Assembly: GCA_964528755.1 (NCBI GenBank)
Contig: CAZGWN010000036.1
Span: forward strand, 1 to 34,224
Reading direction: 5' to 3'
Length of the DNA: 34,224 nt
DNA from: an uncultured Propionibacteriaceae bacterium
Lineage (GTDB): Bacteria; Actinomycetota; Actinomycetes; Propionibacteriales; Propionibacteriaceae
Both the position numbers and the translations under genes were made by a program. The notes under the pieces were generated by a model. The model worked only from the letters and a program-made list of their open reading frames with translations, had not been told where the DNA came from and did not search any database. Each line of letters starts with the position of its first letter. The stretch's first letter is position 1. Shown here piece by piece: positions 8,743 through 34,224 of the stretch.

Positions 8743-8818
8743 TGGAGCCACCTACCGGAATCGAACCGGTGACCTACGCTTTACGAGAGCGTCGCTCTAC
8801 CTACTGAGCTAAGGTGGC
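8743..8818 (-). tRNA. tRNA-Thr (anticodon CGT)
   Basis: The reverse complement folds as a canonical cloverleaf. Acceptor GCCACCT/AGGTGGC, D-arm GCTC-AGTAGGTA-GAGC, anticodon stem ACGCT/AGCGT with loop CTCGTAA, T-arm ACCGG-TTCGATT-CCGGT, and an encoded CCA. Confidence 0.9.
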
Positions 8819-18518: not shown

Positions 18519-19754
18519 TCACTGGTGCCGGTGGGCACCGCGTCCCACCAGCTCCGTGACCAGCACCGCCACGAGCAGCGCCGCGCCCAGCAGCGGGGTG
18601 GCGGCACTGAGCAGGACCTGCCCCGGGGAGTAGTCGAGTTCCTGCATGCCGCCCGCGGGCAGGATCTGATAGGGCGCGATCCAGACCCACAGGACGAGAA
18701 CGGCGCCGATGCCGAGCACCCACCCGGACTGCGCCGGGTGTGCCTCGCGGCGGACGCGCTGGACGAGCAGGACGGCCAGCGGCACGATCCACACGAAGTG
18801 GTGGGTCCACGAGACCGGGGAGACCAGGGCACTGGTGAGCCCGACGAGCACGATGCCCAGCGCCTCCTCCCCTCGCCGGCGGAGGACGAGGGCGGCGGCG
18901 ATGCCGAGCACCAGGACGATCACCGAGACCGCCGTCCCCACGGCCGGTCCCGTGGTCAGCCCGAACGCCCGCATCGCCGCGCCGGTGAAAGACTGGTTGT
19001 CCAGATAGATCGGGTCGGACTCGAACCCGACCGAGTGCGTCGTCGCCAGGCGGTGCCAGTAGAACGCCGAGTAGCCCGGCAGCACTGCCCACCCGATCGC
19101 GGTGAGTACGGCCGCGGTGACGATGGCGACCAGCGCCTCGCGCCGGCGCCGGGCGAGCAGCAGGTAGACGATGAACAGGCCCGGCGTCAGCTTGATCGCG
19201 GTCATCAGGCCGACGATCCAGCCGGCCGGCAGACGACGACGCCCCGGCGCCCCCGGCATGATGTCCAGCAGGATCAGACAGGTCAGCAGGATCTCGACCT
19301 GTCCGAGAGCCGTGGACAGGGTCACCGGCACCGCGGTGGCGATGGCGGCCGCCGCGACCAGTGAGGCCGGCCGGCCCCGCAGCCCGCAGCGGTGCACCAC
19401 GGCGATGATGCCCGCCCAGCCGGCGATCGCCCACAGGATTTTCCACCCGGCGGTGGGTCCCAGCAGGAAGACCATGAACCCGATTGCGGCGATCGGCGGG
19501 TAGACGAAGGCATTCGGGCCGTCGCGATAGAGCTCCCCGCCGTGCAGCGCGGCCCTCGCCCCGTCGACGTAGATGCCGAAGTCGGCCATCGCGCCGGCGA
19601 GCCCGTCCGGGGACAGCGCCTGCGGGATGAGCCAGGACACGAGGCCGGCCACGATCGGCAGGCCGAGCTGGGCGAGGACCCGGATCCGCGCACGCCGGTC
19701 CTGCGGCCCCGGCCGTTCGTACGTGTCGGTGCGGGTGTCCACGGTTGCCTCCAC
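18519..19754 (-). CDS. GT87/DUF2029 family integral-membrane glycosyltransferase (polyprenyl-phosphate-sugar dependent, GT-C-like)
   Basis: 411 aa with ~10 TM helices and an 'AIKLTPGLF' motif typical of DUF2029 mannosyltransferases. GTG start. Confidence 0.65.
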   Translation of the reverse strand: MEATVDTRTDTYERPGPQDRRARIRVLAQLGLPIVAGLVSWLIPQALSPDGLAGAMADFGIYVDGARAALHGGELYRDGPNAFVYPPIAAIGFMVFLLGPTAGWKILWAIAGWAGIIAVVHRCGLRGRPASLVAAAAIATAVPVTLSTALGQVEILLTCLILLDIMPGAPGRRRLPAGWIVGLMTAIKLTPGLFIVYLLLARRRREALVAIVTAAVLTAIGWAVLPGYSAFYWHRLATTHSVGFESDPIYLDNQSFTGAAMRAFGLTTGPAVGTAVSVIVLVLGIAAALVLRRRGEEALGIVLVGLTSALVSPVSWTHHFVWIVPLAVLLVQRVRREAHPAQSGWVLGIGAVLVLWVWIAPYQILPAGGMQELDYSPGQVLLSAATPLLGAALLVAVLVTELVGRGAHRHQ

Positions 19755-19882
19755 GGGCCCATCCTGTCATCTCCGAGTCCGGGCCCGGCGGCGCGGACAG
19801 CGACCCGCTGACCCGTCGCCGGGCATCCTGGTCGATGATCGTTCAGGAGACCGTCCGCCCCCACGAGCAAGGAGACATACCC

Positions 19883-21334
19883 ATGGGGACTGCTGTTGTT
19901 GTCGGCATCATCGCCGTCGTCGTCGTCGCTGCGGCCATCGCGGTGCCGATCATGGTCCGCGGCTGGATCAAGGTGGCCCGCGCCGACGAGGCGCTGGTCA
20001 TCTCGGGACGGCGCCAGAAGACCGAGACCGGGGACTCGCCGGTCACGGTGATCGTGTCGGGTCGGGCGGTGGTCAACCCGTTCCTGCAACGGGCCGAGTT
20101 GATCTCGCTGCGATCACGCCAGGTGGCGATGACCGCCGAGGCGCAGTCCGAGGACAACGTGACCCTGCAGGTGGAGGCGGTCGCGATCGTCAAGGTCGGA
20201 TCCTCGGCCGAGCTGGTCCGCCGGGCCGCCGAACGGTTCGCCTCCCAGGACGCCGCGATCGAGCACTTCACCACCGAGCAGCTGGAGGGCGCCCTCCGCG
20301 GGGTCGTGGCGACCCTGCCGGTCACCGGGCTGATGCGCGACCGCAAGAAGTTCTCCGAGCAGATCGCCTCCGACGTCGCCACCGAGCTGGCCGAGCAGGG
20401 GCTCATCCTGGACTCGTTCCAGATCAAGGGCATCACCGATCAGGTCGGCTACATCTCCTCGCTGGGCATCCCCCAGGTCGAGGCGAAGCGGCGCGAGGCC
20501 GAGATCGCCCAGACCGACGTGAAGCGGGCGATCACGGCCCGCGAGATCGCCACCGCCGAGGAGAACCTGATCGAGCAGACCCGGCTGGATCAGAACCGGG
20601 CGAACGCCGCGGCCGAGGTCGGCAAGGCCCGCGCCGAGGCGGAGCAGGCCGCCGCACTGGCCCGGGCCAGCGCCGAACAGTCGGTGCTGGTGCAGGAGGC
20701 CGAGAACCGGCAGGCGCAACTGGACGCGGACGTCAAGCGGGTCGCCGACGCCGAACGATACAAGCGTCAGCAGGCCGCCGAGGCGGCCGCGTTCGAACAG
20801 GCCAAGAAGGCCGAGGCCGCCGCGAAGGTGGCCCAGGCCGAGGCCGACGCGGCCCGCTACTCGCGTGCGCAGGCCGCCGAGGTGGCCGCGTTCGAGGAGA
20901 TCAAGCGCGCCGAGGCGCTGGCCCGCTCGGCCACCGCCGAGGCGGAGGCCACCCGCCAGAAGGCCCAGGCCGAGGCGGAGGCGGTCCGGCTGGCCGGTCA
21001 GGCGAAGGCGGACGCGATCGAGGCCGAGGCGGCCGCCCTCGCCCGCAACCAGGAGGCGCTGCTGGCCCGCCAGGCCCTGGACCAACTGCCCACCCTGATG
21101 GAGGCCTTCGCCGCCGGGTACGCCAAGGTCGGGTCGGTGACCGTGATCGGATCCGGCAACGACACGGCACCCGGCGCCCGGATGGCCGCCGAACAGGGGG
21201 TCGCCCTGGCCGGGGTCTTCGAGTCGGTCAAGGCGACGACCGGGCTCGACCTGGGTGAGTTGATCGCGGGCCGGGCCACCGGGCGGGCGATCGGCGAGGC
21301 CGTGTCCGGCTCCGGCTCCGGCTCCGGCAACTGA
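19883..21334 (+). CDS. Flotillin/SPFH (band 7) domain protein, YuaG/FloT-like
   Basis: N-terminal TM 'MGTAVVVGIIAVVVVAAAIAVPIMVRGWIKVARADEALVISG', an SPFH domain, then a long Ala/Glu-rich coiled coil (EA repeats). AAGGAGA RBS at 19868. Confidence 0.82.
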   Translation: MGTAVVVGIIAVVVVAAAIAVPIMVRGWIKVARADEALVISGRRQKTETGDSPVTVIVSGRAVVNPFLQRAELISLRSRQVAMTAEAQSEDNVTLQVEAVAIVKVGSSAELVRRAAERFASQDAAIEHFTTEQLEGALRGVVATLPVTGLMRDRKKFSEQIASDVATELAEQGLILDSFQIKGITDQVGYISSLGIPQVEAKRREAEIAQTDVKRAITAREIATAEENLIEQTRLDQNRANAAAEVGKARAEAEQAAALARASAEQSVLVQEAENRQAQLDADVKRVADAERYKRQQAAEAAAFEQAKKAEAAAKVAQAEADAARYSRAQAAEVAAFEEIKRAEALARSATAEAEATRQKAQAEAEAVRLAGQAKADAIEAEAAALARNQEALLARQALDQLPTLMEAFAAGYAKVGSVTVIGSGNDTAPGARMAAEQGVALAGVFESVKATTGLDLGELIAGRATGRAIGEAVSGSGSGSGN

Positions 21335-22381: not shown

Positions 22382-23023
22382 TCAGCAGCCGGGCTGGAAG
22401 CGCGATTTGAGCCATGCCCCGGACTGGTAGGCGAACGAGAACAGCCATTGCCCGACCGAGTGCGGCTGACGGAACTCCCACACCTCGACCGTCGGGCCGT
22501 CGACGCACCGGTTCATCCACATCCGGGCCCGGGCGACGTGAGCGGTGGTGGTGAGCACGGCGACGTGGTCCCAGCCGCGCTCGGCGGCCACCCGGTTGAG
22601 CAGGCGGGCCTCACCCCTCGTCGTGTACGGGTCCGGGTCGACGCACTCGATGATGATGTCGGGCAGGCCCGGATAGCCGGCACAGTAGTCCCGCGGATAG
22701 CGTTCACCGGTGCGTGGGTCGACCGACACCGTGGTCAGGATCGTGGCGGTCAGGCCACTCCGCGCCAGGTCGATCGCCAGCGGCATCCGCTCCTCGGCAG
22801 GCCCGATGACGTACAGGGCGTCGACCGGCTGGGGCTGATCCACCCGCGGGTGGACGACGAAGCGCCAGCACAGTCCGAGCCAGACCAGGACGGCCGCGAC
22901 CAGCGCGATCAGGATGATGAGGAATGTACGCACCCGGTGGCGTCGCCGGTCAGGTCGCTCTCGCGGGTACGCATGGCGGCCTCCGCCGATGCCCATCGGT
23001 GTTTCGGCCCCAGGCTCCGCCAC
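22382..23023 (-). CDS. DUF218/YdcF-SanA-like membrane-anchored protein
   Basis: 213 aa. N-terminal TM 'FLIILIALVAAVLVWLGLCW' followed by a DUF218-like core ('DALYVIGPAEERMPLAIDLARSG', 'VAVLTTTAHVARARMW'). Confidence 0.6.
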   Translation of the reverse strand: MAEPGAETPMGIGGGRHAYPRERPDRRRHRVRTFLIILIALVAAVLVWLGLCWRFVVHPRVDQPQPVDALYVIGPAEERMPLAIDLARSGLTATILTTVSVDPRTGERYPRDYCAGYPGLPDIIIECVDPDPYTTRGEARLLNRVAAERGWDHVAVLTTTAHVARARMWMNRCVDGPTVEVWEFRQPHSVGQWLFSFAYQSGAWLKSRFQPGC

Positions 23024-23032
23024 AGGCCCAGC

Positions 23033-23905
23033 CTACTGGCGGCCGCGGGCGAGTTGTTGGAGGAGGTAGGTGCCGTAGCCGGACTTGACCAGGCTCTCGG
23101 CCCGGGCGCGCAACTCGTCGTCGGACAAGAACCCCATCCGCCAGGCCGCCTCCTCCGGACACCCCACCTGCAACCCCTGCCGGGCCTGCAGGGTCCGCAC
23201 ATAGTTGCCCGCATCGTTCAACGAGTCGAACGTGCCGGTGTCCAGCCACGCCGTCCCCCGCGGCAACACCTCCACCTGCAGGCGACCCGCACGCAGATAG
23301 TGATCGTTGACGTCGGTGATCTCGTACTCCCCCCGCGCCGACGGCTGCAAGGATCGCGCGATCTCGACCACCTGGTTGTCATAGAAATACAGCCCCGGCA
23401 CCGCAAAATTCGACCGCGGCACCGCCGGCTTCTCCTGCACCGACAACGCCCGCCCCGACCCGTCGAACTCGACCACCCCGTACGCGGACGGGTCGGCCAC
23501 CCAGTAGGCGAACACCGCCGCACCCTCCAGACTCTCAAACCGGCGCAGCCGGGTCCCCAGACCCGGACCGTAGAAGATGTTGTCACCCAACACCAACGCG
23601 ACCCGATCGGACCCGATGAACCCCGCCCCGATCGTGAACGCCTGCGCCAGACCCCTCGGCTCCGGCTGCGTCGCGTAGGACAGCGACACCCCGTAGCGCG
23701 ACCCGTCACCCAACAACCGCTCGAACGCGGGCGCGTCGGCCGGGGTGGTGATGATCAAAATGTCGCGGATCCCCGCCAGGATCAGCGTCGTCAACGGGTA
23801 ATAGATCATCGGCTTGTCATAGACCGGCACCAACTGCTTCGACACCCCGATCGTGATCGGATGAAGACGCGTACCAGCCCCACCAGCCAAAATGATCCCC
23901 CGCAT
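23033..23905 (-). CDS. rmlA: Glucose-1-phosphate thymidylyltransferase
   Basis: '[38 protein letters not shown]...' is the canonical RmlA N-terminus. ~290 aa. The annotated 396 aa ORF is an upstream extension. Confidence 0.9.
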
Positions 23906-24093
23906 AAACCCGACTCTGGCAGCCCGGCCGAGGAGCCGCAAGTCGGGAGCCACCGGCGGTCGCGCCCGGGACCACCGTCGGTCCGCAGGAAGGGAAACCC
24001 AACTTGGCGCGGCCGCCGCACCCTGATAGTTTCTGACCCGGATGCTCGGGAGCATCCGGTCGGAAAGCAAGACGCAAACCTTGGGGGACGTCC

Positions 24094-24648
24094 ATGCGCA
24101 GTGAACACAGGTCAACTCAGGCGGCCACGTCACGGCCGTCACGCCGCACCGTCGTGCAGGGAGCCGCGTGGGCCACGCCGGCGATTGCGCTCGGCAGTGC
24201 CGTGCCCGCCATGGCCGCCTCACCGACTCCGGGCGAGTGCCTGGTGTTCTCCCTGGCCGGTGACTCCTGCAAGTGGCCCGGCTCGGGGAGCAAATGGTCG
24301 TACCACCTCGTTCTTTGCGTGGCGAAGTCCCCCTCCTGCGCTGACACCGGCGAGGCGACGCTCACAATCACCCGCCTCACGAACAACGCCGATAAGCCCC
24401 TGACGTCTTGCGGTGACACCCCGTTCCCGCTGACGTTGACCGTGCCCGCGACCGGCCAGATCTGCCGCGACCTCGGCGCCTTCCGCTCTGAAAGCTCCGC
24501 CAGCAAGATCGTCATTTACGGCAGCGCGGGCGGCACCGGGACCGTTAAGCTCGGGGAAGTAGACGCCCCCCGGATTGCGGCGAGGACGACGAGAGCCCCT
24601 GCGCCTCCTGAGCCCCGCGGTCGCGCCGGCGGCTACCATGCTGACTAG
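24094..24648 (+). CDS. Small secreted Cys-rich hypothetical protein with a Tat-like signal ([12 protein letters not shown])
   Basis: 184 aa. Twin-arginine motif plus hydrophobic segment, with predicted AMA-ASP cleavage. Seven Cys in the mature part. GGGGGACG RBS. Divergent from rmlA. Confidence 0.45.
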
Positions 24649-24686
24649 GTTCGGCCGTCCGTGCCGCACATACACTCGGGGGATGC

Positions 24687-26522
24687 ATGCGCACAGGCAG
24701 TCCTGAGGGACCGGCCTGGCTGAGGAACGTTCAGAGGGTCAGGCGGCCGCTCACACTGGTTCCGTGGCGGATGCGCGGGAAGCTCTTCCTGCTGGGCGCT
24801 GCCAGTGTCCTGTCCGCGCTCCTGGATCTGGCGGGCGTGCTGGCCATGATGCCGCTGATGCAGCTCCTCACAGTGCCGGACTCGGTGCCCGGCGTCCTGC
24901 AGCGTTTCCTGGTGCCGGTCGTCGGCACGGACAACCGGCGGACCCTCCTGCTGGCCACCGCGCTGTTTGTCGGCCTCATGTTCATCCTCAAGAACGTGAC
25001 GATGGTCGTCCTGCGCTGGTGGAGCATCGGGGTCACCTCCCGAGCGTCGGCAGCCGCCCAGGCCACGTTGCTCGACAAGTACGTCCACGCGTCGTACGCC
25101 TCCCACCGCCAGCGCACCAAACCCAAGATCATCCAGGCCGTCACGGGGGCCGTGGACTCCTACTTCGCCGGGGTGCTGCTCGGCGTCATCGGGATCCTCA
25201 CCGACCTGGTCACGGCCGCCGTCCTGCTGATCTCGCTCCTCGTTCTCGCCCCCGTGGCGTCACTGGTGGCCGCCGTCGTCTTCTGTGGTGCCGCGCTGTT
25301 CATGGTTCGTGTCCTCAAGCCGTACGCCATCCGCCTCGGACTCCGCGGTCTCGAGCTCAGCACGCGCATGTGGAGCTATCTCAACCCGGCCATCGAAGGA
25401 TTCCGGGAATCCCGCATCTTCGGACGCGAGGACTTCTTCGTTCAGCAGTTCCGAGCGAATCGCTTCGAGTCGATCAACCCCAAGCGGGGCAATCAGGTGC
25501 TGGGCGAACTGCCGCGGTACTTCATGGAGATCGTCATGATCTTCGGGATCCTCGCCGTCGCCATCCTCGTGTTCTCCACCCGTCCCGACGGCGAGGCCTT
25601 CGGCCTGTTGGCGGTCTTCGCCGCGGCATCGGTCCGGATCGCCCCTGCGCTGAACCGGGTGGTCGCCGCGGTCAACGGGCTGCGCTCGAGCGCGGCGTCG
25701 CTCGACATGCTCCTCGAGGAAATGACCAACCTCGACTCCGAGGACTCCACCGTCACCGAGGCCACGGACGATGTCCAGACGATTCCCGACGGCGACATCG
25801 ACGTCGCAGACGTGAGTTTCCGCTACCCCGACGCGTCAACCGACGTCCTCACCGACATCACCGTCACCATCCCTCGCGGTCGCACCATCGCCCTCGTCGG
25901 ATCCTCCGGCGCAGGCAAGACGACGTTCGCCGATCTGCTGCTGGGCCTGCTGGTCCCGACATCGGGCACCATCTCGGTGAGCGGCATCGACGTTTCCCGC
26001 CACCCGCATGCCTGGCGCCGAAGCGTCGCGGCCGTCTCCCAAAAGGTCTACCTGTGGGACGCCCCCGTCCGCGACCTCATCACCTTCGGACAACCCGCCG
26101 ACGACGTCGACCACGAACTGCTGACCCAGGTGACCCGACAGGCCCGCCTCGAGGACATCATCGCCTCGCTCCCACACGGACTCGACACCTACGTAGGCGA
26201 AGGCGGCACCCGCCTCTCCGGCGGCCAGGCCCAACGCATCGGCATCGCCCGCGCCCTGTACGCCCAGCCGCACGTGCTGATCATGGACGAGGCCACCAGC
26301 GCCCTGGACAACGAAACCGAACATGAGATCACCTCCACGATCGACGCCCTGCACGGCCAACTCACCGTCATCGTCATCGCCCACCGCCTCTCCACGGTAC
26401 GCAACGCCGACCAGATCCTGTTCTTCTCCCAAGGCCGCCTCGCCGACCGCGGCTCGATGTCCTCACTACGCCAGACAAACGCCGAATTCGCCCACCTCGT
26501 CGAACTCGGGCAGTTGGCGTAG
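24687..26522 (+). CDS. ABC transporter, fused permease/ATPase (type I exporter)
   Basis: Six N-terminal TM helices. Walker A 'GSSGAGKTT', signature 'LSGGQAQRIGIARAL', Walker B 'LIMDEATSALD', H-loop 'IAHRL'. Start uncertain between 24687 and 24771. Confidence 0.85.
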   Translation: MRTGSPEGPAWLRNVQRVRRPLTLVPWRMRGKLFLLGAASVLSALLDLAGVLAMMPLMQLLTVPDSVPGVLQRFLVPVVGTDNRRTLLLATALFVGLMFILKNVTMVVLRWWSIGVTSRASAAAQATLLDKYVHASYASHRQRTKPKIIQAVTGAVDSYFAGVLLGVIGILTDLVTAAVLLISLLVLAPVASLVAAVVFCGAALFMVRVLKPYAIRLGLRGLELSTRMWSYLNPAIEGFRESRIFGREDFFVQQFRANRFESINPKRGNQVLGELPRYFMEIVMIFGILAVAILVFSTRPDGEAFGLLAVFAAASVRIAPALNRVVAAVNGLRSSAASLDMLLEEMTNLDSEDSTVTEATDDVQTIPDGDIDVADVSFRYPDASTDVLTDITVTIPRGRTIALVGSSGAGKTTFADLLLGLLVPTSGTISVSGIDVSRHPHAWRRSVAAVSQKVYLWDAPVRDLITFGQPADDVDHELLTQVTRQARLEDIIASLPHGLDTYVGEGGTRLSGGQAQRIGIARALYAQPHVLIMDEATSALDNETEHEITSTIDALHGQLTVIVIAHRLSTVRNADQILFFSQGRLADRGSMSSLRQTNAEFAHLVELGQLA

Positions 26523-26726
26523 CCGCCCGGCCGCCACTACCCGGGGCCGCACGAACGCCCTCTCGCACTCCTCGCCCTGGCTCGAAAGTCGTCTGACAGC
26601 GACGTCACTGGCAACCCATCGCCCTCCACACCGATTCGCGTCGATCACAGAGAATTCATTAGTAAAGACACCAACCTTCCAAGGAACCCGCAGAAGGTCC
26701 ACTAGTGTCGCGTTTCCGACAGTGGA

Positions 26727-28105
26727 GGGTCTGTCCGGTAAACGGTGTGTGGGGTCCGGCGGTTTTCAGTGAGTGGCTCTCTCGAACCGTCCGGCGAAGG
26801 TGATCGCGAACGCGTTCAGCGCGGGCTTCCACCTCATCACCCAGCGTGCCCTGCCCCCGCCGGTGGGGTCAAGCGACCTCGTCACGAGATAGAGGCACTT
26901 GAGCGCGGCTGCCTCGTTCGGGAAGTGGCCGCGCGCCCTGACTGCCCTGCGGTATCTCGCGTTGATCGACTCGATCGCGTTGGTCGTGCAGATCACTCGC
27001 CGGATCTCGACGTCGTACTCCAGGAACGGCACGAACTCTGCCCAGGAGCTGCGCCAGAGCTGGATGATCGCCGGATACCGCTCACCCCACTCGGTAGCGA
27101 ACTCCTCGAACCGGTCCTTCGCCGCTTGCTCGGACGGAGCCGTATAGACCGGCTTGAGGGACTTTACGATCGCGCCCCGGTGCTGCCGTCCGGCGTAACG
27201 GAAGCTGTTGCGGATCAGGTGGACGATGCACTGCTGCACGACCGTCTGCTCCCAGGTGGTGTTGATCGCCTCCGGCAGCCCCTTGAGGCCGTCGCACACC
27301 GCGATCAGCACGTCCTCGACTCCGCGGTTCTTCAGCTCGCTGAACACCGGCAGCCACAACCTCGCCCCTTCCGCGCCGTCACCGGCCCAGATACCCAGGA
27401 TGTCGCGTTCCCCGTTCGTAGTGACGCCCATGACGACGTAGAACGGGGTGTTGCGGACCTGCCCGTCACGGACCTTCACCACGATCGCGTCGACGAAGAT
27501 CACCGGGTAGATCGCATCCAGCGGCCTGCTCGACCATTCGGCGAGTTCCCCGGTGACCTTCTCGGTGATCGGGCTGATCGTGTCCTTGGAGACCTTCGCC
27601 CCATAGACCTCGTCAAAATGCGCGGCGATCTCTCCGGTCGTGAGCCCTCTCGCGGTCAGCGACAGCACGATCTGATCGATCCCGTCCAGCCGCCGTTTGC
27701 GCTTCGGGACGATCACCGGCTCGAAGGACCCGTCACGATCCCGGGGAACCTCGATCTCGACGGGCCCGATCTCGGTGAGCACGGTCTTCGTCCGGCTCCC
27801 ATTGCGCATGTTCACCCCCAGCGGGGTCTCGCCGTGCTCGTGGCCGAGATGCTCGGTCAGCTCAGCGTTCAGCGCGGTCTCAAGCACGTTCTTCGAGAGC
27901 TGGTTCAACAGGCCACCAGGCCCGACCAGGCTCACACCCTGCTCCTTCGCCTGCGCAAGCAAGCGCTCGGCAAGGTCCTTCTGATCGATGATCCCTCCCG
28001 TCACGGGGTCAATCATCTCGTCGTCCAGCCGTTCGGTCGTGTCAGCCACGGCCGTCTCCTTTCGGATCAGGCCGGACCCTCACACACCGTTCTTCTGACA
28101 GTCCC
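26727..28105 (-). mobile_element. IS256-family insertion sequence, apparently intact (~1.38 kb) with imperfect ~30-bp terminal IRs
   Basis: Left end GGGTCTGTCCGGTAAACGGTGTGTGGGGTCC. The right-end reverse complement GGGACTGTCAGAAGAACGGTGTGTGAGGGTCC shares the core AACGGTGTGTG. Encloses a complete 427 aa transposase. No clean direct repeat at the flanks. Confidence 0.8.
26766..28049 (-). CDS. IS256-family (mutator-type) transposase
   Basis: 427 aa with DDE-type mutator-family motifs ('IYPVIFVDAIVVKVR', 'VLIAVCDGLKGLPEAI', 'VVQQCIVHLIRNS', 'RRVICTTNAIESINARYRR'). Confidence 0.9.
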   Translation of the reverse strand: MADTTERLDDEMIDPVTGGIIDQKDLAERLLAQAKEQGVSLVGPGGLLNQLSKNVLETALNAELTEHLGHEHGETPLGVNMRNGSRTKTVLTEIGPVEIEVPRDRDGSFEPVIVPKRKRRLDGIDQIVLSLTARGLTTGEIAAHFDEVYGAKVSKDTISPITEKVTGELAEWSSRPLDAIYPVIFVDAIVVKVRDGQVRNTPFYVVMGVTTNGERDILGIWAGDGAEGARLWLPVFSELKNRGVEDVLIAVCDGLKGLPEAINTTWEQTVVQQCIVHLIRNSFRYAGRQHRGAIVKSLKPVYTAPSEQAAKDRFEEFATEWGERYPAIIQLWRSSWAEFVPFLEYDVEIRRVICTTNAIESINARYRRAVRARGHFPNEAAALKCLYLVTRSLDPTGGGRARWVMRWKPALNAFAITFAGRFERATH

Positions 28106-29208
28106 AAAGTTGGTTGATGGTTCGCTTTCCTGAGGATTTCGTCGGCGGTCTTGGTCCAGATGAAGGCGTGTTTGCGGTCGTTCCAGCCGGTGATGAATTG
28201 CCGGATCTTGGCATTGAGGTCTTTCACGCTTGTGAACACGCCGCGGCGGATCGCTTGCTTGTCGATGATCCCGAACCAAACTTCGACGAGGTTCAGCCAC
28301 AACCCGGATGTCGGGGTGAAGTGCACGTGGAAGCGGGGATGCTTCTGGAGCCAGTCGTCGACCTCGGGGGTCTTGTGGGTGGCGTAGTTGTCCATCACCA
28401 GGTGCAGGTCCTGGTCCCGGTAGGCGCGATCCAGCTGGCGGAGGAAGGCAAGGAACTCCTGGCGGCGGTGCTTCGGCTTGACCGCGCCGGTGACGTGCCC
28501 GGTCGCGATCTCCAGCGCCGCGAACAGTGTCGTCGTGCCGTGCCGCTCGTAGTCGTGGGTGCGTTTCTCCGCATCGCCCGGCCGCATCGGCAGCATCGGC
28601 GCGGTGCGGTCCAGCGCCTGAATCTGGCTCTTCTCATCCACGCACACCACGACCGCGTTATCCGGCGGCGCCACATACAGGCCGACGACGTCGGTGACCT
28701 TACCGACCAACTCCGGGTCGGTGGGGAACTTGAACGTCTCGGCCCGCCAGGGCTGCACCCCGTACGTGCGCCACGCCCGCGCCACCGTCGCGTTCCCGAT
28801 TCTCAAGTGATCCGCCAACAGCCGCGACGACCAGTGCGTCACCCCGAACTTTCTCGGCGGCTGCTGCAGTGTCGCCGTGATGATGCGCTCGTCATCGACG
28901 TGCTTGGGACGCCCCGCACGCGGCGCGTCGACCAGGCCCGCCAGCCCCGCCTCGGCATACCGGTTCCGCCACGTCCACACCGACGTCGTCGTCGTTCCCA
29001 CCTCGGCCGCGATCCGCGCATTCGCGATCCCCTCCGATGCGAGCAGCACGATCCGGGCCCTCCTCGCCAGCCCCGCACCGATTGCCGTGGACCGCGTCCA
29101 CGACATCAACTCATCCCGATCACCATCCCAGAGCACCAACGCCGGAGCAGGAGAACTCGCCACAACCAAACTCTCCCAAACCACCAAACACTCACGAACT
29201 AACGGCAC
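28042..29208 (-). CDS. IS630-family transposase; the last ~21 codons are read-through into IS256 sequence
   Basis: N-terminal HTH ('LVLWDGDRDELMSWTRSTAI...ARRARIVLLASEGIANARIAAEVG') and a DDE domain ('VVCVDEKSQIQAL', 'LHLVMDNYATHKT', 'HFTPTSGLWLNLVEVWF'). The frame runs across the IS256 junction. Confidence 0.75.
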   Translation of the reverse strand: MPLVRECLVVWESLVVASSPAPALVLWDGDRDELMSWTRSTAIGAGLARRARIVLLASEGIANARIAAEVGTTTTSVWTWRNRYAEAGLAGLVDAPRAGRPKHVDDERIITATLQQPPRKFGVTHWSSRLLADHLRIGNATVARAWRTYGVQPWRAETFKFPTDPELVGKVTDVVGLYVAPPDNAVVVCVDEKSQIQALDRTAPMLPMRPGDAEKRTHDYERHGTTTLFAALEIATGHVTGAVKPKHRRQEFLAFLRQLDRAYRDQDLHLVMDNYATHKTPEVDDWLQKHPRFHVHFTPTSGLWLNLVEVWFGIIDKQAIRRGVFTSVKDLNAKIRQFITGWNDRKHAFIWTKTADEILRKANHQPTLGLSEERCVRVRPDPKGDGRG

Positions 29209-29240
29209 GAGACACTAGAAGGCCGAGATGCTCCGACCTG
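28106..29240 (-). mobile_element. IS630-family element whose 3' end is interrupted by the IS256 insertion
   Basis: Contains the IS630-type transposase ORF. The native C-terminus and right IR are displaced by IS256 at 28105/28106. The outer boundary near 29240 is approximate. Confidence 0.55.
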
Positions 29241-29279
29241 CTGACTGGACCCGGATCGTTTCCGGTTCCTGGGAGCTTG

Positions 29280-30392
29280 TCACAGCCCAACATGCTCCAT
29301 TGTCCGCGAGAATGCGGACTGGCAGGCTGTTGCATTAGCCCGTGAGGGCAGTTGGTGACGTTCGCCATACACATCCGCGACAATCCCGGCAACATCACCG
29401 TCCGCTGCCAGGTGGACGACCGGGGGTTCTGGACAGGCCGCAAGCGCATCCGCTGTCTTCGCGATCTTGGGAACCACGACAGGCGTTCCGACGCAGGTCC
29501 CAACAATCGCGGCGTGCATACTGGTCGTGAAGACCGCTCCCGCCGCAGCCAGCACATCGGTAATCTCCGCAGCCTTCAAGTTTGTCAGAACTGGCACCTG
29601 CTCCTGTTGGGCCACCGCCTTCAGGACCTGGTCTTCCCCGGCGTAGCGGCCGAGAGGCAGATTGACCACCGGAAGCGGCTTCAGGCTGCGAACAACCGCA
29701 CTAATCCGATCCGGCGACCACCCGTGGAACTCGGCGGCCTGCACCACGATCGGGGCTCTGTCCACGCCCCATCGCTGACGCAACAGCTGTCTCCCCCTCG
29801 CACGCAGCGGGTCGGGGTCCCGGAAGGCAGCCGTGGCAAAGACCGCATCCGGCGCTGCGACCGTCAGCTGCTCGTCCATCCCAACTTCTTGTAGGCGGTC
29901 TCGGCCGACCGCCGTCCGCACCCAGGCAGAGCTGATATGCGACACAGCCGCACGGACATCCTCCGAGGGCGCCAACTCGTGAACGCCAACACTGACGAAG
30001 GCCGTAGGGGCGTCGCCCCATCCAAGCCGAGGAAGCCATGGACCCGCTCCCGCAGGAAAGCTCCGCATCCGGAACAGTCGACCACGAACCCGAGACAGCC
30101 GCGAGCCGCGCCTGCCCGAGGGGATATTGAGGTGGTCCTTGGCGATCGTGCCAATGTCCGTGCGAATCAGATCGCCACCGCCGACGAGTACCGCATCCGG
30201 GTGCACGCGCGCCAACTCCCGCAGTGGTCGAATCCGTTGTCCACCCGGCGTTCTCCCCTCAAGAGGGGCAAAGTATTCGATGTGACCATCAAAACCGCAG
30301 TCGCGCAACAACCCGGAGACGACCTCCGGGTACAACTGGTCACCATAGTTGTCCACGGAAAAGTCACCCACATGCGCAATAACCCGAACCAT
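29280..30392 (-). CDS. Polysaccharide pyruvyl transferase (CsaB/WcaK/PssM-like, PF04230-type)
   Basis: N-terminal 'MVRVIAHVGDFSVDNYGDQLY' matches the pyruvyl transferase G-x-x-N-x-G-D motif. ~371 aa. ATG at 30392 with a GGAGAGGTG RBS. The longer ORF start at 30497 is an extension. Confidence 0.65.
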   Translation of the reverse strand: MVRVIAHVGDFSVDNYGDQLYPEVVSGLLRDCGFDGHIEYFAPLEGRTPGGQRIRPLRELARVHPDAVLVGGGDLIRTDIGTIAKDHLNIPSGRRGSRLSRVRGRLFRMRSFPAGAGPWLPRLGWGDAPTAFVSVGVHELAPSEDVRAAVSHISSAWVRTAVGRDRLQEVGMDEQLTVAAPDAVFATAAFRDPDPLRARGRQLLRQRWGVDRAPIVVQAAEFHGWSPDRISAVVRSLKPLPVVNLPLGRYAGEDQVLKAVAQQEQVPVLTNLKAAEITDVLAAAGAVFTTSMHAAIVGTCVGTPVVVPKIAKTADALAACPEPPVVHLAADGDVAGIVADVYGERHQLPSRANATACQSAFSRTMEHVGL

Positions 30393-30648
30393 GCCGCACC
30401 TCTCCAAGCCGCCGTGACGTCCAAGACCACCGACGGCACGCCTTACGAATGACCGATTGGGCCCCCTGCCGAATTGCATTGAGCACTTCTCCAGCACAAG
30501 ACCAGGCCAGCCCCCACCTGCAGCCGTGGCCCTGCAACATCAAGGGACGTGCGCTGCACAGGCAGGCACTTGCCCGGGATGATCCTACGGCCGGCACTCC
30601 GACGGGCGCGAACTCGGGAGCCGGCCTCAATCCTTCACCGGTTGGGCT

Positions 30649-30931
30649 GGGTCTGTCCGGTAAACGGTGTGTGGGGTCCGGCGGTTTTCAGTGAGTGGCT
30701 CTCTCGAACCGTCCGGCGAAGGTGATCGCGAACGCGTTCAGCGCGGGCTTCCACCTCATCACCCAGCGTGCCCTGCCCCCGCCGGTGGGGTCAAGCGACC
30801 TCGTCACGAGATAGAGGCACTTGAGCGCGGCTGCCTCGTTCGGGAAGTGGCCGCGCGCCCTGACTGCCCTGCGGTATCTCGCGTTGATCGACTCGATCGC
30901 GTTGGTCGTGCAGATCACTCGCCGGATCTCG
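30649..30931 (-). mobile_element. Truncated second copy of the IS256-family element (left IR plus 3' end of the transposase gene, 283 bp)
   Basis: 100% identical to 26727-27009 over 283 bp and diverges abruptly after CGCCGGATCTCG. Encodes the last ~80 aa of the transposase ('RRVICTTNAIESINARYRR...FERATH'). Confidence 0.85.
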
Positions 30932-32112
30932 CCGGCGAGCGCGACGAACTGGCACCAGATCCGGTTCTGGTCGAACCCGTGCAACGGCAGGTTCGTCAGG
31001 CCGGTGTCCTTCGCGTTGCGGATCGGCGTCCTCACACCTCGCCCGACGCCTGTGACGGACCTCCAAGTCGGTGAGCTGACCCCGGGTGGCGTTCGTGGCG
31101 AACGCGGTGAGGCGGTAGCCGTCCACGTCGTCGAACCGCAGCTGGGCGCCCGGATGCGGTCGTTCCCGGCGGACGATGACGCGCATCCCGGCCAGGTCGC
31201 CCAGACCGGTGAACTCGGCCACGTCGGCCCCGTCGCGGGGCCGACCATCGGTGTTGTAGGCCGACTCCAAGATGTTCTCCGGGATCAGTCGATAGAGCTC
31301 TGGGGTGTTCATGGGCAGGGTGAACCCGACCAAGTACGCCACCCGTCGGTTCGTCAGGGTGGCGATGGTGCCCTTGGTCGACCCGGCACCGTCAATCCCC
31401 ACCAGCACCTTCCGTCCAGGCCGTGCCCCCAGGCCGATCTGGCCGAGCGCGTCGGCGATCCCCGTGCGGTGATCCTCCGCCGTGTCGGATCCGGCCTTGC
31501 CGGGCCGCAACAGGATCGTCAACGGCTCCCCGGTCCCCTCGGGGCCGTGGTCGTTGAGGCGCGCACAACGGGTGAAACCCGAAGCCCTTCTTGAACGTCG
31601 CACGCGCCCATTCCTTCTCACTGTGGGCGCTGACCAGCGTCGCGTCCAAGTCGACCACCAACGGATCCGCCACCCTCGCCCGCCGGGCCGGCGACGCGTC
31701 CCCGGCACGTGCCCAGGCGGTCTGCCGGGGCGGTCTTGCGGGCCCGCCCGATCGCGGCGACCGCCCGCTTCGCATCCCTCGCGAGCAGCCTGATCAGCCG
31801 CGAGACGGTCGGGTCAGACGCGACCCGCCCGTAGAGGCCGGGCTCGTCCCGCAACTGGGCGAGGTCGGCAAGGCAGTCACCACCCAACGCCAACGTGAGC
31901 GCCAGGTCGCAGAGGATCTTGCCCGGATCGTGCACCGCCAACGGTTTGCGCCAGCCCGCCAGCTCTGTCGAGAGGGCCCGGTCCAGGCCGGTCGCCCGGA
32001 CGGCCTCGACGAGCAGCAGGCCGCCGGCCTGCCCGACCGCCGCGACGCCGGCCCGGTCACTATGGACGCGTGGGTAGGAGCCGGTATTCTTCACCTCGAA
32101 GGTGCTCCTCAC
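30932..32112 (-). pseudogene. IS1380-family transposase pseudogene (at least 3 frameshifts, 3' end removed at the IS256 fragment junction)
   Basis: IS1380-like segments lie in three minus-strand frames. The N-terminus (32112 downward) reads 'GGLLLVEAVRATGLDRALS...HDPGKILCDLALTLALGGDCLADL'. The middle reads 'LVVDLDATLVSAHSEKEWARATFKKGFGFHPL'. The next segment reads 'HGPEGTGEPLTILLRPGKAGSDTAEDH...RRERPHPGAQLRFDDVDGYRLTAFATN'. The last reads 'NAKDTGLTNLPLHGFDQNRIWCQFVALAGEI' and is fused directly to the IS256 fragment. Confidence 0.75.
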
Positions 32113-32515
32113 TACGGGCCAGAATGTGACCTAGACACTCCCATTCTCCCTAGCCAGGAGCACTTTCACATCCCCGGCCCCAGCAATCAAGACGACCCCG
32201 CATGAAAGGGGCAGGCCAAGTCGCGGATCGCTTCGTTCTCGAACAGCCCGATCGCGGACCAGTCAGGCGTTGTCATATGCATCGCCGATCAAGCCCTCCG
32301 CACCGACGCCGACCCTGACCCAGGAGCTTGGCTCGCTGTCGTCAACGAAGACGTGACCTGCGTCCTTCGACACCGATCGCGGATCATCGACTATAATGAT
32401 CAAGGCCATGCTGGAAGCGCTATGACAACGGGATGAGTTTGGCGCTTCGGCAAGGCGCAAGGCCCTAGACTCGGGATTCTGGGGTCTTGCATGACGGAAC
32501 CGAGAGGAGACAACG

Positions 32516-33406
32516 GTGGCGGCCAACTCACTTGACGCAGCGCGACAGGTCAAACACCGAGCGTGGACAGTTTGGCCGCACACGCGGTCGGTCTATCGCC
32601 GGACGATCGACCTAGGGTATAGGACGCAATCAGCAATTAGGCCATATCACTTCGACCTCGATCGACATCGCGACGCCTACGGCGATGTTCCCCGGATGTA
32701 TTTCCTACACCGGTCTGCGCCGGATCGCCCTCAGCGTTCCAAGACCGTTCGGCAGCGAATATTCTGCTTCTGGACAGGAGACAACGCACTGACCCCAGGC
32801 CGCAAGCGAGGCCTACAAGCGTTGCGATCCAGCCAGCCAGATACCGAAGTAGTCTTGGTGACAGCTCGGACGTTGAAAGACTGGATTCTTCCGGATCACC
32901 CGCTTCACGTCTGCTACGAAAGTCTGTCTCTGGTTCATCGATCTGATTATCTCCGAGCGTACTTCATGGCGTATTTCGGCGGCGGATACACAGACATCAA
33001 GCGCCCAACCGGCAATTGGCTTCAGAGGTTTGAAATGTTCCGAGATCCCACCGTCTGGCTCGCCGGCTATGCCGAGAAGTCATCAAGATCGTGTGGCGGA
33101 GACGATCATACCAAGCTCGGACAAGATATCCATCGGAACTACGGCAGATTAGTCAGCATCAGCGCCTTTATCATGCGATCGGGAACTCCATTCGCATGCG
33201 AATGGCTCCAAGAAGTCGAGCGCCGACTCGACTACTATCAGGAAGATCTGCTCCAGCACCCCGGAGGAACCTGGGGAGACGAGCCTGGCTACCCGCTTCG
33301 CTGGATAGAAATCGGATCAGACGTGTATCACCCGCTCCAGCTGAAATGCTTGGAGCACGTGAGGCGATCGCAAGCACTCCTTCCGGTGCTTGAGGGTCAT
33401 CGCTGA
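32516..33406 (+). CDS. GT32-like glycosyltransferase (OCH1/capsular-polysaccharide-synthesis type), lower-GC and probably horizontally acquired
   Basis: 'IFCFWTGDNALTP' and 'HRSDYLRAYFMAYFGGGYTDIKR' match the GT32 motifs (IWxG, and the a-x-x-D-x-x-R-Y-x-x-L-Y-x-Y-G-G-x-Y-x-D-x-D DXD region). GTG start at 32516 with a GAGAGGAGA RBS; ATG 32696 is an alternative. Codons are rich in A/T third positions, unlike the rest of the window. Confidence 0.55.
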   Translation: MAANSLDAARQVKHRAWTVWPHTRSVYRRTIDLGYRTQSAIRPYHFDLDRHRDAYGDVPRMYFLHRSAPDRPQRSKTVRQRIFCFWTGDNALTPGRKRGLQALRSSQPDTEVVLVTARTLKDWILPDHPLHVCYESLSLVHRSDYLRAYFMAYFGGGYTDIKRPTGNWLQRFEMFRDPTVWLAGYAEKSSRSCGGDDHTKLGQDIHRNYGRLVSISAFIMRSGTPFACEWLQEVERRLDYYQEDLLQHPGGTWGDEPGYPLRWIEIGSDVYHPLQLKCLEHVRRSQALLPVLEGHR

Positions 33407-33849
33407 GAAGCGGGCGCCAGAATTCCAGGGCAACCATGCAGTCCAACATTCGGGAAAGTCGCCCATGACATCTCTTGACGTCGACTAGAGCGGGCGGTAC
33501 GAACTGTTGACATGGGATGTCCCGTAGTTCCATTTCGAGAACAGGCCGTAGAATGAACGCATGGCGCCACAACGTCCGCCGGGCACCTCGTCGACCCTCA
33601 GGCCCAGATCGGTCTGCTAGTCTTCCCGCTCTGGCTCCTGCTGACGGGGCTCGAGTCCTTCGACCGATATCCCACTGATGTGCACCGGAAAAGCGCAAAG
33701 CGATCGATGCGGCCGTCGAAACCGCGCCATCTCGTCAGGTCATCTATCACCTCGGCGTAGAGCTGGCCCGTAGTTGCTCACCGAGAATTCACCCACGCAG
33801 AAATCACCATCATCGCCAACTCCCATCAACTGTCGAAGCTCTCGACCGC

Positions 33850-34194
33850 ATGGCCCAACCGGGAACGAAAATGACTACCCCACCCCCACGTCTTCCGCAA
33901 TCTGGCGATACTCGCCCCATGAGATGCATAGTCTCGACGGCCCGTAGGTTTAATGCCGTCACACCTCGGTTCGTCCCCCGACCTACCCATCCACCCGTCG
34001 TGGCGGTCTGCGTCTACCGGGCACACAACGAAGCCAATATTCTCAAGCTGATGAGGCAACTGCCGCGGCGAACCGAATACCACCTGCACGCCCTGGACGA
34101 ACCAACCGATCTCCTCGACCAATGGACGGAGTCGACGGGCCGAGGCGGTCGGATGCCGCTGCTCCAAACCGGCTCATCGCAATCGGGGGTGTAG
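33850..34194 (+). CDS. Hypothetical protein (weak call)
   Basis: 114 aa ORF in the lower-GC tail with no recognisable motifs. A competing minus-strand ORF (33826..34167) overlaps it. Confidence 0.2.
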   Translation: MAQPGTKMTTPPPRLPQSGDTRPMRCIVSTARRFNAVTPRFVPRPTHPPVVAVCVYRAHNEANILKLMRQLPRRTEYHLHALDEPTDLLDQWTESTGRGGRMPLLQTGSSQSGV

Positions 34195-34224
34195 GCGGGG
34201 TGTGAGCAGGTCCGGCGCGTCGGT

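Follow-up and report, generated by a model that had tools for sequence, protein, structure and literature searches.

Surface-glycan loci are, as the norm, low in GC content, flanked by insertion sequences (IS) and horizontally exchanged. The variable loci which adjoin rml genes, including those for O-antigens, capsules and cell-wall glycans, occupy a conserved site, hold different genes in each relative, and combine a low GC content with IS and pseudogene debris. In some glycosyltransferases (GTs) with a GT-A fold but without a DxD motif, such as the GT14 core-2 N-acetylglucosamine transferase, basic side chains take the place of the metal. The one characterised enzyme of Pfam family PF05704 that a literature search turned up, the pneumococcal WciE (CAZy family GT32), is described as a retaining GT-32 enzyme which adds a branching alpha-galactopyranose (alpha-Galp) at the cytoplasmic face (PMC10462825). 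The stretch analysed here, termed the window, is the whole of contig CAZGWN010000036.1 (34,224 bp) of an uncultured Propionibacteriaceae bacterium, and the gene in question, in its low-GC tail, encodes an intact GT-A glycosyltransferase of 296 amino acids from the PF05704/PF04488 (GT32-like) group (32516-33406, plus strand). The tail is probably the most deviant 2 kb of a strain-variable, IS-eroded envelope glycan locus, in which the intact glycosyltransferase, with the role proposed further on, was acquired horizontally or through replacement of the locus. It shares with the rml-adjacent loci the conserved site, the gene content that differs per relative, the low GC and the debris, but its exporter is a fused MsbA/PglK-type ATP-binding cassette (ABC) protein rather than a Wzm/Wzt pair, and its host belongs to a poorly studied Propionibacteriaceae lineage. 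As a surface-glycan locus it is ordinary, and the point of interest is the unstudied D-x-K family to which the glycosyltransferase belongs.

The predicted structure of the 296-amino-acid protein is a high-confidence GT-A fold (predicted local distance difference test, pLDDT, 95.6) close to a solved GT32 structure, the nearest solved structures being toxin-type retaining glycosyltransferases and the yeast Och1 (GT32; PDB 9N3S). The toxin-type enzymes (YeGT, TcdA/TcdB, SetA and PaTox; GT44 and relatives) act, after secretion, as effectors on host proteins, which they glycosylate by means of a DxD-Mn2+ site; unlike these, the window gene is situated in a glycan locus and its product, at 10-15% identity, lacks delivery domains, so that its context offers no hint of a toxin. 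Och1 is a Golgi type-II membrane protein, while the window protein (identity of approximately 12%) is bacterial, cytoplasmic and without a signal anchor. The likeness with WciE and PF05704 is that of a soluble single-domain GT-A enzyme encoded in a surface-polysaccharide locus, where the role of WciE is the one proposed here. The window protein scores below the PF05704 cut-off, however, and belongs to a family of its own, whose members have an invariant D-[ILV]-K and, on a long N-terminal helix, a conserved K-H.

The alignment of 59 family members shows fourteen invariant residues (W86, R96, L137, H141, S143, D144, Y145, Y149, G155, G156, D160, K162, W230 and Y259), all of which are retained in the window protein. 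The key residues are D144, R147, G155-G156, D160 and K162, with D144 invariant and R147 nearly so. According to the preliminary description, the open reading frame (ORF) carries the GT32 motifs. This holds for the SD..R...GG.Y.D part, which is present as S143-D144-Y-L-R147 followed by D160, but not for the canonical DxD, which is replaced by D160-I161-K162. The D144/R147 pair lies 16 residues before D160, the spacing of D171/R174 and D187 in Och1 (PMC12312940), while the second aspartate of the Och1 DxD (D189) corresponds to the lysine here. K162 is invariant across the 59 sequences. Among 266 family sequences, a looser pattern placed the motif in 242, of which 234 have D-[ILV]-K, and all 220 matches to a stricter pattern have the lysine. 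The Pfam scores of the window protein are 22.0 bits for PF05704 (Caps_synth; E-value 1.2e-4, residues 73-159; gathering cut-off 24.5) and 17.1 bits for PF04488 (Gly_transf_sug; gathering cut-off 23). Relatives exceed both the PF05704 cut-off (34.8, 28.0 and 26.9 bits) and that of PF04488 (26.7, 24.9 and 23.9 bits), the PF04488 alignments ending at profile position 75 of 93 in every case shown, and 50/59 aligned members match PF04488 and 45/59 match PF05704 (the latter at E <= 0.01). There were no NCBIfam matches for the protein, and a profile search of PDB sequences returned a chance match only.

A database search yielded 274 homologues, the best of which, aside from identical proteins, is a metagenome protein with 60% identity. 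The named homologues all belong to the Actinomycetota (Kocuria, Sinomonas, Nocardioides, Micrococcus, Agromyces, Cryobacterium, Ornithinimicrobium and Dermatophilaceae), with the best named matches in Kocuria and Sinomonas (57%; Micrococcales), followed by Nocardioides (47%; Propionibacteriales). A profile search against 1.84 billion representatives returned 559 at E <= 1e-30 and 1633 at E <= 1e-3. The view of GT32 as a mainly eukaryotic group with sporadic bacterial capsule representatives does not fit this family, which comprises at least 559 representative clusters with named relatives in the Actinomycetota throughout. One family member (P0297; 281 amino acids) is rich in Lys, Asn and Ile, as is typical of a low-GC organism, and given this protein the D-[ILV]-K family may extend beyond the Actinomycetota. 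Fusions are common, with seven of the ten long family members (P0268, P0270, P0278, P0281, P0307, P0319 and P0367) fused to a GT2 domain and another (P0363) fused to a FkbM-type methyltransferase instead. In the former layout (e.g. L030 1924-3684) the GT2 domain is N-terminal and the D-x-K GT32-like domain C-terminal. The searches made here found no studied member of the D-[ILV]-K family and no solved structure. It is tentatively suggested that these proteins constitute a family of retaining GT-A enzymes, so far unstudied, that work without a metal, the lysine possibly replacing the DxD-Mn2+ site. Often fused to GT2, they could be the half responsible for the alpha linkage in two-domain polymerases of cell-wall glycopolymers destined for ABC export. 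For enzymology, the interest lies in several hundred representative clusters without a characterised member, frequently GT2-fused, in which an invariant lysine takes the place of the second DxD aspartate.

The GC content per 1-kb window is 0.70-0.76 in positions 1-22000, 0.63-0.68 in 23000-31000 and 0.57-0.60 in 32000-34000. Windows of 200 bp show a stepwise fall from 0.72-0.75 (31600-32099) to 0.60 (32100-32299), with the step located at approximately 32150 (0.72 to 0.54-0.61) and the minimum (0.535-0.555) inside the glycosyltransferase ORF. The drop beyond the IS1380 remnant that was read from the sequence in the preliminary description is thereby borne out. The low-GC tail is real, but this low GC extends over only about 2 kb (32151-34170; GC 0.54-0.63), from the point where the IS1380 remnant ends to an ISL3 insertion, and a GC content of 0.65-0.69 is regained in the overlapping contig L001 after its position 2000, approximately 100 bp past the last unique base of the window. 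The ORF itself has a GC content of 0.567, with values of 0.62, 0.47 and 0.61 at the first, second and third codon positions (GC1, GC2 and GC3), respectively. Compared with a codon reference of 17 core genes (GC3 0.900 +/- 0.031; codon adaptation index, CAI, 0.704 +/- 0.049), it deviates in both GC3 (0.609; z -9.3) and CAI (0.310; z -8.0), as the proposed atypical codon usage would have it. Codons ending in A or T make up 39% of the ORF and 9.6% of the core genes (chi-square 247, p ~1e-55), with TAT, GAT, GAA, CGA, GGA and TCA strongly over-represented. The bias claimed earlier is thus large, although TTC, which does not end in A or T, had been wrongly listed among its codons. The compositional and codon anomaly of the ORF is real and far beyond chance.

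The window does not contain the whole locus. The identical 296-amino-acid protein is encoded in four other assemblies, and P0121, the other member of its 90% cluster, is the same protein with a start change of M to V. L001, which is 99.95% identical, begins at window position 32151 and continues past the window end through gX, a gene for a putative transferase, to a GT4 gene and a 721-amino-acid GT4+GT2 fusion, both intact. L032 overlaps L001 by 4.19 kb at 99.98% identity and continues into rmlB (73-75% identity to Raineyella; GC3 0.91) and the start of rmlCD (68%; GC3 0.96), in the Raineyella order. The host itself is, as judged from TopA (83-84% identical to Raineyella, with other Propionibacteriaceae next at 69-74%), a Raineyella-like member of the Propionibacteriaceae. 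It is scarcely credible that DNA of a lower-GC organism was joined to a Raineyella-like contig via a shared IS during assembly. The contig is metagenome-derived, the GC step coincides with an IS end, an exact 283-bp IS256 repeat lies between core and tail, and L032 indicates that ambiguous joins across ISL3 are possible. However, L002 and L003 cross the junction from the IS1380 remnant to the glycosyltransferase at 100% identity, and the target duplication of the ISL3 element (TCCAAACC) matches between the left flank in the window and the right flank in L032. Furthermore, L001 and L032 tie the gene, with no IS in L001, to the native far-side genes without crossing the IS1380 and IS256 repeats, and an assembly chimera is therefore very unlikely. 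By the same linkage the stretch from rmlA to rmlB is one glycan locus. It spans at least 17 kb, as the sum of contig spans, between native rmlA (glucose-1-phosphate thymidylyltransferase; 23033-23905, minus strand; 80-82% identity to Raineyella rmlA), which is the inner anchor of the variable locus, and native rmlB-rmlCD.

From rmlA outward, the locus would read: ABC exporter, IS256, IS630, pyruvyl transferase, IS256 fragment, IS1380, IS3, gX' (a gX paralogue fragment), GT32-like gene, pyruvyl transferase remnant, gX/ISL3, GT4 and GT4+GT2. The exporter is a fusion of transmembrane and ATPase domains (24687-26522, plus strand) with a near-native composition (GC3 z -0.6) and with homologues that adjoin GT32-like genes in other actinomycetes, while the polysaccharide pyruvyl transferase (PF04230; 29280-30497, minus strand) has a GC3 of 0.685. 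The GC3 z values of the locus are -6.9 for the pyruvyl transferase, -5.3 for gX, -3.9 for GT4, -3.5 for GT4+GT2 and -9.3 for the GT32-like gene. Across the window, L001 and L032, glycosyltransferases are thus clustered with the ABC exporter and nucleotide-sugar genes. The further glycan genes looked for past the window end are indeed there (gX, GT4 and GT4+GT2 in L001; rmlB-rmlCD in L032), and the picture of a lone import beside an IS graveyard gives way to one gene among others in a locus of at least 17 kb, where the glycan genes are atypical (GC3 z -3.5 to -9.3). In Raineyella, rmlB-rmlCD-DUF218-rmlA-S4 are contiguous and co-directional, with variable glycan genes beyond rmlB (a Wzx-type flippase in strain W15-4; GT4/GT4/GT2 in LH-20), while here rmlA and rmlB are divergent and the variable genes lie between them, an arrangement that a single inversion would explain. 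As an annotation example from a little-studied Propionibacteriaceae lineage, the locus shows a mosaic of transferase genes of foreign composition bordered by native rml genes, with at least five IS families eroding it and one insertion still polymorphic in the population. Neither this nor the enzymological point overturns current understanding.

Homologues of the glycosyltransferase occur in comparable surroundings. The Sinomonas homologue is located at the edge of a low-GC cluster (0.56-0.64, with flanks of 0.71-0.78) encoding an ABC exporter, GT4, GT2, a priming transferase (Bac_transf) and an epimerase, while a 34% relative in Ornithinimicrobium accompanies an ABC exporter (54%) and a GT4 (44%), with separate GT4 and GT2 genes. 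On the contig L029, the neighbours of the homologue (GC 0.553) include rmlA, GT2 genes, a GT4+GT4 fusion and a second paralogue. On L030 the homologue is divergent from an ABC exporter, and a GT2 domain is attached to its second copy. The ABC exporter, GT4 and GT2 thus recur as partners in Sinomonas, Ornithinimicrobium and two metagenome contigs, and the same partner genes are present in L017, L024, L029 and L030.

A horizontal origin of the glycosyltransferase gene is likely, on the basis of the sharp GC step, the lowered GC at all three codon positions, the IS boundaries, the absence from the examined Raineyella stretches, and the best named matches in another order. The mobile-element boundaries comprise the IS1380 and IS3 remnants on the left and the ISL3 element with its 8-bp duplication on the right, and carriage of the gene by any of these is not demonstrated. 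No homologue is encoded beside rmlB in Raineyella W15-4 and LH-20, nor beside the ABC exporter in the Raineyella metagenome-assembled genome (MAG) 3C_43 (10-kb flanks), and these three genomes carry different glycan genes at those sites. The presence-absence comparison suggested in the preliminary description thus finds no counterpart in the examined stretches. The gene could have reached the lineage by transfer, or by replacement of the locus, from a lower-GC pool shared among actinomycetes. It is improbable that it is instead a native, long-resident gene whose low GC derives from the regime of the locus (for instance low expression, weakened selection in DNA rich in IS, a mutational bias towards AT, or selection that acts on glycan loci). 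In keeping with such a regime, homologues and whole glycan clusters fall under the host GC in Sinomonas, Ornithinimicrobium and L029, and the ABC exporter of the locus is near-native, with a 68% orthologue in the Raineyella MAG. Against a regime of this kind count the GC step from 0.72 to 0.60 within approximately 200 bp at an IS end, the lowering of GC1 and GC2 as well as GC3, and the native rml genes, which hold a GC3 of 0.82-0.96 in the same locus. The lack of a homologue in the examined stretches of the three Raineyella genomes and the closer named matches in the Micrococcales than in the Propionibacteriales likewise speak for transfer or locus replacement. Since homologues elsewhere are also low in GC, this composition may mark such loci permanently instead of pointing to a recent arrival. 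Of the recent horizontal acquisition proposed initially, the horizontal part is likely, while its recency is not demonstrable with a closest relative at 60%, no donor and low-GC homologues elsewhere. A protein search of 72,556 plasmids recovered no homologue, and hence no sign of plasmid carriage.

The 296-amino-acid protein may be a cytoplasmic retaining enzyme which would add an alpha-linked sugar to a glycan on a polyprenyl carrier, as a branch or as one half of the repeat unit. Synthesis of this glycan would fall to the GT2 and GT4 enzymes encoded nearby, partly from sugars of the deoxythymidine diphosphate (dTDP)-rhamnose pathway, and the ABC exporter would then export it. We infer retaining (alpha) transfer by analogy with the fold neighbours, which are all retaining, and from the hydrophobic middle residue of the motif. 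Metal independence would be a reasonable expectation from the GT-A enzymes that lack DxD, such as the GT14 transferase, with the invariant lysine, and not Mn2+, neutralising the diphosphate leaving group.

Expression and integrity of the pathway bear on whether this role is still exercised. The GTG start of the ORF is preceded, at a distance of 6 nt, by a Shine-Dalgarno-like GAGAGGAG (32502-32509, plus strand; read directly from the sequence), while promoter and terminator scans gave background levels and no convincing promoter. The Pfam scans of genes in the window, L001 and L032 revealed no priming (polyprenyl-phosphate) transferase, and one may lie elsewhere in the genome. Downstream, gX encodes a 283-amino-acid DUF707-like putative GT-A transferase with an invariant DDD, of a rare family (19 members found, some of which match DUF707, with the DDD invariant throughout). 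It is intact in L001, but in the window only its first 107 codons remain (33850-34170, plus strand), cut by the left end of an ISL3-family element (34171-34224, plus strand; inverted repeat GGCTCATCGCAATCGGGGGTGTAG) which forms the last 54 bases of the window, the contig ending inside the IS. The insertion is clean and approximately 1.43 kb in length (L032 1317-2750), with a right inverted repeat GGCTCTTCACAATCCACGGTGTAG. Its 8-bp target duplication TCCAAACC (34163-34170) occurs in the window, L002 and L032, while the site is empty in L001 (2012-2020), which derives from another sample. The insertion in gX is thus polymorphic. That the gene is a stranded relic, with an open ORF in a pathway destroyed by IS insertions and deletions and inactive in this strain, is considered rather unlikely. 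The interruption of gX would fit such a relic, as would the three pseudogene fragments of the patch (IS3, gX' and the pyruvyl transferase remnant), the IS1380 remnant 365 bp upstream of a gene without a convincing promoter, and the priming transferase not seen in the window, L001 or L032. The ORF is nevertheless unbroken over 296 codons, has a good ribosome-binding site and lacks none of the invariant residues. GT4 and GT4+GT2, further downstream, are likewise intact, and the ISL3 insertion is polymorphic, with gX whole in L001. Loss of activity would concern present function only and is compatible with acquisition by transfer or locus replacement.

Several observations weigh against the reading of the gene as an acquired, working member of a glycan locus. 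The window protein itself falls short of both Pfam cut-offs (22.0 versus 24.5; 17.1 versus 23), and two homologues (Kocuria L025 and L028) are located outside any glycan cluster. With regard to origin, the absence from Raineyella covers the 10-kb flanks of three genomes, in which a copy elsewhere is possible, there is no identifiable donor, with the best homologue at 60%, and the homologues in other high-GC hosts (L029 and Sinomonas) have a similarly low GC content. In terms of function, everything proposed on the sugar, the acceptor, the stereochemistry and independence of a metal is by inference, and the pathway may be broken in this strain, given the cut gX, no priming transferase among the scanned genes and an uninformative promoter scan.

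The remainder of the patch consists largely of debris. An IS1380-family transposase remnant, frameshifted and 3'-truncated (30791-32150, minus strand), forms its left edge, and is followed by an internal, frameshifted IS3-family transposase remnant (32196-32289, minus strand; ..IGDAYDNA.. / ..IGLFENEAIRD..) which was identified by blastn and tblastn. In blastn it matches (79.8% over 97 nt) an ORF of IS3 type that lacks annotation on a Citricoccus plasmid, and tblastn agrees. The only match of the plasmid DNA search is this same 97-nt stretch and proved to be the IS3 remnant. Directly adjacent lies gX' (32290-32424, plus strand), which corresponds to codons 106-150 of a gX paralogue (tblastn 56% over 45 amino acids) with the DDD changed to NED. 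Within it, 32290-32394 is a 105-bp imperfect direct repeat of gX nt 316-419 (blastn 82.7% over 104 nt, E 1e-27), and assignment of these positions to minus-strand IS3 DNA was ruled out by the 83% DNA identity to the gX segment that encodes the invariant DDD. The junction between the IS3 remnant and gX' (32289/32290) and the ISL3 site (34170/34171) fall at the same gX codon, approximately 105/106, within about 3 nt of one another, an agreement that may be due to chance, to a hot spot or to a recombination history common to both. The GC3 of gX is 0.66 over codons 1-105 and 0.78 over codons 106-283, a split which is only suggestive of a Campbell-type integration via the 105-bp repeat, with gX as a chimera, and this origin was not adopted. 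The sole difference between the window and L001 in 33850-34170 concerns gX residue 56 (L001 1865-1867), which is Tyr in the window, the family consensus (YCVYR), and Asp in L001. In L032 the ISL3 element has an IS3 element, and not gX, on its left, probably because the assembler joined sequences across a repeated IS. The spacer 3' of the glycosyltransferase gene contains a probable N-terminal remnant, frameshifted, of a second pyruvyl transferase (33670-33796, minus strand). It was detected by tblastn with the protein of 29280-30497 as two adjacent pieces (47% and 69%), with a joint E-value of 6e-6 in a small search space, which is weak evidence. Two minus-strand ORFs (32263-32583 and 33171-33698) are not regarded as genes, having no family matches and a GC3 of 0.47-0.65 and overlapping real features. 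Scans for RNA genes (ARAGORN and Rfam) located a single tRNA-Thr (CGT; 8743-8818, minus strand) in the core region, far from the tail, and the tail is thus not a tRNA-linked island.

Inward of the patch, positions 30649-30931 are an exact 283-bp duplicate of an IS256 3' end (26727-27009), and the overlap of this copy with the 3' portion of the IS1380 remnant suggests a nested insertion with a later deletion. The core region encodes, by Pfam, ppa, dacB, GT4, epimerase, yqeY, PSP1, tmk, topA, hsp20, GT87, flotillin-like, S4-domain, DUF218-like and rmlA genes, after which follow the fused ABC exporter, IS256, IS630, the pyruvyl transferase, the IS256 end fragment, the IS1380 remnant and the tail. 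The order PSP1-holB-tmk-CHAD-topA-GT87-S4-rmlA is common to Raineyella sp. W15-4 and LH-20. The flotillin/SPFH-domain gene (567 amino acids; 19631-21334), between the GT87 and S4-domain genes, is missing from that position in both W15-4, where an acyltransferase is encoded, and LH-20. The ORF containing rmlA is extended by 150 codons upstream, part of which resembles DNA near rmlB of Raineyella LH-20, and the order of rmlA and the DUF218-like gene (22382-23905) is swapped relative to both Raineyella genomes (L026 3927-5407; L027 6091-7488). Finally, the IS630 and IS256 transposase ORFs overlap by 38 bp on the same strand (28042-28079), which suggests that one element inserted at the very end of the other.

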